A DNA stretch of 64,000 nt from Escherichia coli (lineage in GTDB: Bacteria > Pseudomonadota > Gammaproteobacteria > Enterobacterales > Enterobacteriaceae), in assembly GCF_002854065.1 (NCBI RefSeq), contig NZ_CP024147.1; one strand, given 5' to 3'. Shown one piece after another: positions 15,401 to 16,504 of this stretch. The position numbers were made by a program, and so were the translations under genes. Every line of letters starts with the position of its first letter. Within the stretch, counting starts at the first letter, position 1. The notes beneath the pieces were generated by a model that worked only from the letters and a program-made list of their open reading frames with translations, did no database searches and was not told where the DNA came from.

Positions 15401-15599
15401 TCTGATGACCTCGCTGGCATTTATCTTCGGCGTATTGCCAATGGCAACCAGCACGGGTGCCGGTTCCGGTGGTCAGCATGCGGTGGGTACTGGCGTAATG
15501 GGCGGGATGATTTCAGCTACTATTCTGGCTATTTACTTCGTGCCGCTGTTCTTTGTGCTGGTGCGCCGCCGCTTCCCGCTGAAGCCGCGCCCGGAATAA
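12486..15599 (+). CDS. acrD: RND-family aminoglycoside efflux pump AcrD
   Basis: 1037-aa [26 protein letters not shown]...; RND transporter; length and neighbours match AcrD. Confidence 0.95.
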
Positions 15600-15610
15600 G
15601 CAATAAAAAA

Positions 15611-15637
15611 GGCGACATGCTAATGTGTCGCCTTTTT
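15611..15637 (+). terminator. Rho-independent terminator after acrD
   Basis: GC stem ggcgac...gtcgcc followed by ttttt immediately after acrD stop. Confidence 0.7.
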
Positions 15638-15707
15638 CAACTTTTTTCAACTTTCCGATTAAGAACCTGCTCAGCGGGTTCTTGCTGTTTGTACTTTGTC
15701 TCAGGAA

Positions 15708-15767
15708 TTACTTACGAAGCATAACTTCGATAAAGTCTTTCCAGTTCCCCAGTTCACGTTCAATCAT
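15708..15767 (-). CDS. ypfM: Very small protein YpfM (19 aa)
   Basis: Minus strand atgattgaacgtgaactggggaactggaaagactttatcgaagttatgcttcgtaagtaa translates MIERELGNWKDFIEVMLRK; strong SD (agagagg) upstream; below ORF-track size cutoff. Confidence 0.75.
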   Translation of the reverse strand: MIERELGNWKDFIEVMLRK

Positions 15768-16129
15768 AACAACCTCTCTTATAATTATGGGTATTCTACG
15801 GAAACAATATACCGTGGTGAAGCTAATTTACTCGATTGCTGCGATGACTACCTCCGGGGGACAAACCTTATGTAAATACTATGGTCCTGCGGTGATGATT
15901 TGTATGTGATACACAGCAACATTTCGAGATATTCATACGGCATCTAATACTGATTTAATTCTGGTTAAAATACAGACAGATAACAAGATGAATATTCTTA
16001 ATGTTTACGTTAAAAATGTTTAATATTATTTAATAGTTGTTAATTTGAATACTTCGATAATGTTATATTTCCTGATAATCATTTGCAGGCAAAATGTTTT
16101 CACTCTTAAATGAGTATTTATTCTCATAA

Positions 16130-16504
<375 letters not shown>

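Follow-up and report, generated by a model that had tools for sequence, protein, structure and literature searches.

The minus strand of the acrD-yffB spacer almost certainly carries a genuine translated gene, the 19-codon ypfM, at 15708-15767 of the window, by which we mean the whole 64,000-nucleotide stretch of Escherichia coli DNA analyzed here. The explanation we favor for the locus as a whole, with a probability of roughly 85%, is that ypfM is an independently transcribed gene for a 19-residue protein. The gene is an already catalogued E. coli small-protein gene, and the initial annotation, which recognized it from the sequence alone, was right about it without its being a new finding. 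Wassarman et al. had predicted the E. coli ORF in 2001, going by the citation in PMC2515195, and that prediction, the RefSeq annotation, an NCBIfam family, and mass spectrometric detection all precede the present analysis.

Identity of the reading frame and its expression signals

The exact minus-strand frame described in the initial annotation is present, with an ATG at 15767-15765, 19 sense codons, and a TAA stop at 15710-15708, encoding MIERELGNWKDFIEVMLRK. At 19 residues, the product falls below the 20-residue minimum of the program-made ORF list, and hence the gene is missing from that list, as had been noted. Of 5426 complete E. coli genomes, all but one (5425) were matched by the 641 bases around the site, and the RefSeq features within the match were acrD, ypfM, and yffB. 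In a record 100% identical to the window, the 60-nt coding sequence is annotated as 'ypfM, protein YpfM, WP_001386977.1'. The counterpart in K-12 MG1655 is b4606 (YP_001165325.1), which RefSeq lists as 'uncharacterized protein YpfM', and alignment with K-12 revealed that the promoter, Shine-Dalgarno sequence (SD), and ORF of ypfM are nucleotide-identical.

The name given in the initial annotation is likewise in keeping with the NCBIfam equivalog NF033843 (small_YpfM), which was matched over profile positions 1-19 of 19 with a score of 59.2 bits, well over the cutoff of 33 (E = 2.4e-16). The window copy has the features of this family, being a 19-codon ORF with an ATG start, divergent from and upstream of yffB, and tail-to-tail with acrD. 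The family and PDB queries were made with a 20-residue translation, comprising the peptide and the preceding codon. No Pfam family matched YpfM, and the PDB sequence search returned no match, even at E <= 10.

An ORF with a Shine-Dalgarno sequence is not, by itself, beyond chance. The 64-kb window holds 831 ATG ORFs of 10-50 codons; a well-placed SD core precedes 22 of them, and in 8, ypfM included, the SD duplex is -7 kcal/mol or stronger. Because the combination of ORF and SD is unexceptional when taken alone, the case for ypfM rests on annotation and on comparative evidence, and what raises it above chance is its conservation across genera with a coding signature.

A consensus scan of the region revealed a single sigma-70-like site, TTCACC-17-TAGAAT (15821-15793, minus strand). 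The -35 hexamer TTCACC, at 15816-15821, is conserved across genera, and the -10 hexamer TAGAAT, at 15793-15798, is represented by TAGAAT, TATAAT, or TAAAAT in the orthologues. Identical hexamers were listed for ypfM by Shimada 2014 following genomic SELEX with the RpoD holoenzyme (PMC3946193). From the promoter spacing, we infer a transcription start near 15786 and, with it, a 5'UTR of about 19 nt. The initial annotation had placed a strong SD 6 nt upstream of the gene. Its strength was upheld, as AAGAGAGG (15773-15780, minus strand) has a predicted anti-SD duplex of -9.1 kcal/mol, but the distance needs correction, since the GAGG core lies 5 nt from the ATG with TTGTT as the spacer. The element AAGAGAGG is retained in most of the 73 ypfM orthologues.

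Downstream of ypfM is a bidirectional intrinsic terminator (15601-15639, both strands), common to ypfM on the minus strand and to the convergent acrD on the plus strand, the stop codon of which lies at 15597-15599. The terminator consists of a 14-pair GC-rich stem (15604-15639) with U-runs on both strands, and it folds at -18.7 and -18.0 kcal/mol on its two strands (z about -5.5). A hairpin followed by a T-run was found 51-205 nt past the ypfM stop in 73 of 74 orthologues, and the stem underwent the compensatory change of GGCGAC/GTCGCC to GGCGGC/GCCGCC among them. With its ends set by the promoter and this terminator, the predicted ypfM transcript is monocistronic and about 185 nt long (15601-15786, minus strand). 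Across genera, the -35, the -10, the SD, the ORF, and the terminator stem are conserved, and the 3'UTR at 15640-15705 is not. It is directly supported that the 19 codons are translated under the control of the sigma-70 promoter (TTCACC-17-TAGAAT) by way of a short leader bearing a good SD, and that transcription of ypfM stops at the hairpin and U-run that likewise terminates the convergent acrD.

Variation of the gene within E. coli was surveyed with a 96-nt query that started in the 5'UTR, took in the whole ORF, and reached 8 nt into the 3'UTR. This query was at least 99% identical in 3902 genomes and 95-99% identical in 1523; in the one variant inspected, the single difference lay in the 3'UTR and left the protein accession unchanged. 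At the ypfM locus, differences from K-12 are confined to the flanks, where the 3'UTR and terminator have a tandem duplication of 10 nt and a single loop SNP, and two further SNPs lie upstream. The duplicated 10-mer is AAAGTTGAAA (15635-15654, minus strand), present as one copy in the aligned K-12 sequence, and the duplication sits in the ypfM 3'UTR directly ahead of the terminator. It is a minority allele, because over 15560-16200 an identity of at least 99% to the window is reached by just 12 of the 5426 complete E. coli genomes. E. coli Z1323HEC0009 (NZ_CP148398.1) carries a 54-nt deletion that removes the ypfM -10, the SD, the ATG, and the first four codons, and ypfM is therefore dispensable at least in this strain. 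PGAP still annotates a 19-residue 'protein YpfM' (WP_338909275.1) at 1489-1548 of this locus (L085), which is probably an annotation artifact on a dead allele.

Conservation of the coding sequence

The conservation sample was anchored on the neighboring YffB and comprised 80 loci, one per species, from about 30 genera, among them Escherichia, Citrobacter, Enterobacter, Klebsiella, Kosakonia, Cedecea, Buttiauxella, Erwinia, Dickeya, and Yersinia. Of the 80 loci, 73 contained a YpfM-like ORF that lay upstream of yffB and ran divergently from it, in every case with an ATG start and in all but two with exactly 19 codons. The ORF match scores of these hits were 66-100, and control scans of the other strand never gave a score above 20. 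Ten YpfM residues are invariant (M1, E5, W9, K10, F12, I13, M16, L17, R18, and K19). Conservation of the peptide across the Enterobacteriaceae had been suggested in the initial annotation as a check on the gene, and the peptide proved to be kept there and beyond.

The 56 distinct nucleotide versions of ypfM had mean entropies of 0.21, 0.21, and 0.71 at codon positions 1, 2, and 3, respectively. Five or six different codons are in use for each of Leu6 and Leu17, and TAA, TGA, and TAG all occur as the stop across orthologues. The Nei-Gojobori dN/dS was 0.10 in the ypfM frame; in the two sense frames shifted from it, the values were 1.87 and 1.85. When the 5'UTR and ORF of 18 diverse orthologues were subjected to RNAalifold, no consensus RNA structure was obtained. 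The periodicity at the wobble position, the low dN/dS, and the lack of an RNAalifold structure together show selection on the translated peptide, and its target is the amino acid sequence of YpfM and not an RNA structure.

Two of the homologues depart from the usual form. The Yersinia nurmii homologue, MVDVELNTWKEFIESMLRKA, has 20 residues and is found about 1.5 kb from yffB, and that of Lelliottia nimipressuralis has the substitution K19N and reads through the usual stop.

Near-invariant synonymous sites were observed in codons 5-10 (15738-15755), where Glu5 is GAA in 56 of 56 sequences, Asn8 is AAC in 49 of 49, and Lys10 is AAA in 55 of 56. Gly7 is the rare GGG in 50 of 54 sequences and never GGT or GGC. 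Unlike codons 5, 7, 8, and 10, codons 11-19 show free wobble variation. The codon 5-10 stretch also holds the near-repeat GAACTGG-G-GAACTGG. The frozen synonymous sites of codons 5, 7, 8, and 10 give hints of an additional constraint at the nucleotide level, and they could stem either from constraints on the mRNA close to the start codon or from a site of RNA interaction.

The 3'UTR, STnc250, and a possible second role for the RNA

A hairpin had been described in the initial annotation at 15662-15684, just downstream of the gene. The hairpin is real and was placed correctly to within 1 nt, the stem being at 15661-15683 on the minus strand with the core GAACCTGCTCAGCGGGTTC at 15663-15681, but it is not the ypfM terminator, since no U-run follows it on that strand. 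It folds at -9.6 kcal/mol on the ypfM strand, where it contains a C.A mismatch, versus -14.5 kcal/mol on the plus strand. The hairpin is found in E. coli and also in E. albertii, in which the mismatch is repaired, and is missing in Citrobacter, Yokenella, Enterobacter, and Klebsiella; the segment is entirely missing in Citrobacter, and unrelated sequence lies at that place in the other genera. The 3'UTR conservation profile falls near zero at 15661-15683. The hairpin was also rejected as a conserved element, as it is unique in the window and constitutes a genus-specific insertion in the 3'UTR.

A match to the Rfam family RF01409 (STnc250) was detected at 15599-15728, with scores of 35.9 bits in the window and 37.5 bits in K-12, both under the gathering threshold of 42. 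The same model scored 94.3 and 82 bits at orthologous loci of Citrobacter and 42.9 bits in Enterobacter. The scores of the window and K-12 fall below the threshold because of the genus-specific 3'UTR insertion and not because the locus is a different one. STnc250 is encoded at the orthologous locus. Its model comprises the last seven ypfM codons along with the 3'UTR and terminator, and both model ends are matched in the window. The difference lies in the Escherichia 3'UTR, which has about 50-60 extra nt, including the 15661-15683 hairpin, where Salmonella and Citrobacter have a short stem instead. STnc250 was recovered from Salmonella by Sittka et al. 2008 in an Hfq co-immunoprecipitation (24 versus 6 reads, 4-fold), and Northern blotting revealed an RNA of about 220 nt that was dependent on growth phase (PMC2515195). 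The association with Hfq pertains to Salmonella only and was seen by co-immunoprecipitation, and the authors concluded that STnc250 is the small mRNA of ypfM (PMC2515195).

These properties raise the question of a dual-function RNA, in which the ypfM transcript, or a 3' fragment of it corresponding to STnc250, would also be an Hfq-dependent base-pairing regulator. We consider this unlikely. The 4-fold recovery of a stable short RNA with Hfq in Salmonella is in its favor, but the enrichment is modest, and the authors of the co-immunoprecipitation study themselves called STnc250 a small mRNA (PMC2515195). Rfam labels the family 'Hfq binding RNA', and the Citrobacter loci score highly against it, whereas the window and K-12 remain under the gathering score. 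The transcript ends at a strong terminator with a U-run and an A-rich tract before it, which speaks for such a regulator, but the A-tract is explained by the terminator being bidirectional, and the 3'UTR between stop and terminator, 51-205 nt in length, is poorly conserved and has no conserved single-stranded seed. Finally, the near-frozen synonymous sites of codons 5-10 would fit with a role for the RNA, but conservation of the ORF shows wobble periodicity, and a consensus structure is absent.

A combined form of this idea seems to us just as improbable. Here, ypfM would be bifunctional, with a partner-docking peptide and an Hfq-associated transcript that regulates other mRNAs, the codon 5-10 sites serving as the RNA interaction surface; in a variant, YpfM would act on the product of a syntenic neighbor (AcrD or YffB/DapE).

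The search for structured RNAs also returned matches to Rfam naRNA4 in Citrobacter, downstream of dapE (L006, 4240-4307, and L035, 4222-4300), which at 41.1 bits were below the gathering score of 59.5. naRNA4 is a REP-derived nucleoid-associated RNA, and these naRNA4-like matches are probably REP elements.

The YpfM peptide, its neighborhood, and comparable systems

Intact YpfM was detected in K-12, in which its sequence is identical, by top-down mass spectrometry with 100% coverage and with the formyl-methionine kept (PMC12529367). This 2025 study repeated the detection by DIA and PRM, found it to be reproducible in low-Mn minimal medium, and makes mention of a prior detection of YpfM by Schmidt et al. 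(PMC12529367). Accumulation of the YpfM peptide in cells, with its formyl-methionine kept, is directly supported. Synthesis of YpfM was also reportedly confirmed by Hemm et al. 2008 with a chromosomal SPA tag. The gene was still described as 'of unknown function' in a 2025 review (PMC12093975).

Another reading holds that the act of translation alone matters, with ypfM as a cis-acting mini-ORF or leader peptide and YpfM as a by-product, and this we find very improbable. YpfM is similar in length to known leader peptides, and a 19-residue chain fits wholly within the exit tunnel of the ribosome, in agreement with the formyl group being kept. On the other hand, no gene lies downstream on the same strand, as the terminator is about 70 nt past the stop and acrD is convergent, and the dN/dS of 0.10 and the 10 invariant residues are marks of selection on the sequence. 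Free YpfM, moreover, reaches levels detectable by mass spectrometry (PMC12529367).

The plus strand carries a GTG ORF of 94 residues (15625-15909) that overlaps ypfM. The initial annotation called this ORF spurious, and we agree. No family match was obtained for it in NCBIfam or Pfam searches, the dN/dS was 0.25 in the antisense frame versus 0.10 in the ypfM sense frame, and from one species to another its stop-to-stop extent ranges between 35 and 170 codons. The antisense frame is open across the ypfM stretch in 74 of 74 orthologues, because stops in that frame arise only opposite Tyr codons, or opposite His or Gln codons preceded by NNT, of which YpfM has almost none; ypfM contains no Tyr codons and few His or Gln codons preceded by NNT. 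The third positions of the antisense frame coincide with the ypfM wobble positions. These points mark the 94-residue ORF as a shadow frame of ypfM. That ypfM itself is the chance frame, and the 94-residue ORF or a purely non-coding RNA the real feature, is scarcely credible, for although the window holds eight ORF and SD combinations of similar quality and the plus-strand frame is open over ypfM in every orthologue, that openness follows from ypfM codon content, the antisense frame has the higher dN/dS, a variable extent, and no family, and mass spectrometry has yielded the sequence of YpfM itself (PMC12529367).

We now return to the reading favored here, in which YpfM would act as a docking peptide. 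YpfM has four acidic and four basic residues, and thus 8 charged residues of 19 with no net charge, and the mean Eisenberg hydrophobicity is -0.118. It has no uninterrupted hydrophobic run of the kind found in a membrane-spanning segment of the AcrZ or MgrB type. With 8 of the 19 residues charged and a mean hydrophobicity of -0.12, YpfM is ruled out as a membrane helix. Plotted as an alpha-helix (100 degrees), it has a hydrophobic moment of 0.546, as compared to 0.265 +/- 0.133 in shuffled sequences, 2.8% of which reached 0.546, and the amphipathicity statistic is only moderately significant. The variability vector lies 157 degrees from the hydrophobic vector, with a marginal variability moment (5.7%). 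AF2 modeling of a YpfM-linker-YffB fusion with a 44-row paired alignment predicted a helix at YpfM residues 9-17, at low confidence (pLDDT of 42-49).

We propose that YpfM would be a soluble peptide without net charge that forms one amphipathic alpha-helix. The invariant hydrophobic face, made up of I2, L6, W9, F12, I13, M16, and L17, would together with the likewise invariant K10, R18, and K19 dock onto a larger protein, leaving residues 4, 8, 11, and 15, which vary, exposed to the solvent. The opposition of a hydrophobic face and a variable face is the pattern to be expected when one side of a helix is buried against a partner. Once docked, YpfM would modulate the larger protein, as other bacterial small proteins do. 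We give this mechanism, with YpfM as a trans-acting modulator of a larger protein, about an even chance of being correct. YffB was considered as a candidate partner and gained no support, as YpfM had a pLDDT of 42-49 in the AF2 fusion and no confident docking was obtained, although this is a weak test, made without PAE.

The spacer between ypfM and yffB is 202-1044 bp long between genera. The GC content is 0.20-0.32 across 15900-16199, versus 0.5-0.6 in the flanking genes. The initial annotation had noted a markedly AT-rich region downstream of ypfM, at 15900-16140; the AT-richness is evident, but the region is downstream only in plus-strand coordinates and is in fact upstream of the minus-strand ypfM. 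A yffB promoter, TTCATA-16-TTTAAT, was reported by Shimada 2014 (PMC3946193) and is located at 15932-15959 on the plus strand. Because the promoter maps to this position, the AT-rich stretch can be ascribed to the divergent yffB promoter and leader, and 15940-16147 seems to represent the 5' leader of yffB, about 180 nt in length. The ypfM<>yffB spacer is also recorded as having an H-NS site (Shimada 2014, PMC3946193), and a MarA ChIP peak is found at ypfM<>yffB in Salmonella (PMC10268841).

Two blocks of the spacer are conserved across genera, at 15905-15937 and 15872-15883, reading TGAATATCTCGAAATGTTGCTGTGTATCACATAC and CATAGTATTTAC, respectively, on the minus strand. The block at 15905-15937 overlaps the yffB -35 (TTCATA, 15932-15937, plus strand) together with the preceding 25 bp, where activators typically bind. 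No regulator was identified for this block, which is at best a poor CRP-like half-site.

In the yffB-anchored loci, acrD and ypfM were both present in 71 and both absent in 7, and in none was acrD present alone. This co-occurrence was set aside as functional evidence; given that acrD and ypfM are neighbors and that yffB served as the anchor of the sample, we judge it uninformative. In Dickeya oryzae, ypfM lies between a cold-shock-domain gene and yffB, without acrD. Three loci from Enterobacteriaceae (L053, L065, and L070) have neither acrD nor ypfM upstream of yffB; in their place, L053 carries a CAAX-protease-like gene and L070 three tandem DUF6708 genes. The notion that yffB of the window is unusually divergent was rejected, as it is 98% identical to that of K-12; a yffB match of 91% identity belongs to a more divergent genome labeled E. 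coli.

The ypfM gene constitutes a clean positive control, in that a reader working without tools recovered a 19-codon gene missed by ORF callers. It is validated unambiguously by simple comparative tests, namely wobble periodicity, dN/dS relative to the shifted and antisense frames, and conserved expression signals. YpfM is among the shortest and most conserved bacterial proteins without known function, and the pattern of a conserved and a variable face, together with synteny, could steer the search for its partner.

Two small proteins offer comparisons. AcrZ is a 49-residue partner of the RND pump AcrB and has a transmembrane helix. The likeness is that of a small protein tied to an RND pump, as ypfM and acrD are arranged tail-to-tail and are found together in 71 loci. 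AcrZ is, however, a transmembrane protein, whereas YpfM is unable to span the membrane, and the co-occurrence with acrD is explicable by adjacency alone. AzuC, encoded by AzuCR of E. coli, is a 28-residue amphipathic-helix protein made from a short RNA that was first catalogued as an sRNA. AzuC has no sequence relationship to YpfM, and its partner and RNA targets are known, as those of YpfM are not. As a working analogy, YpfM may nonetheless resemble AzuC in being a very small, non-transmembrane, amphipathic peptide produced from a short, monocistronic, Hfq-associated transcript. AzuC and YpfM were detected together in low-Mn minimal medium (PMC12529367).
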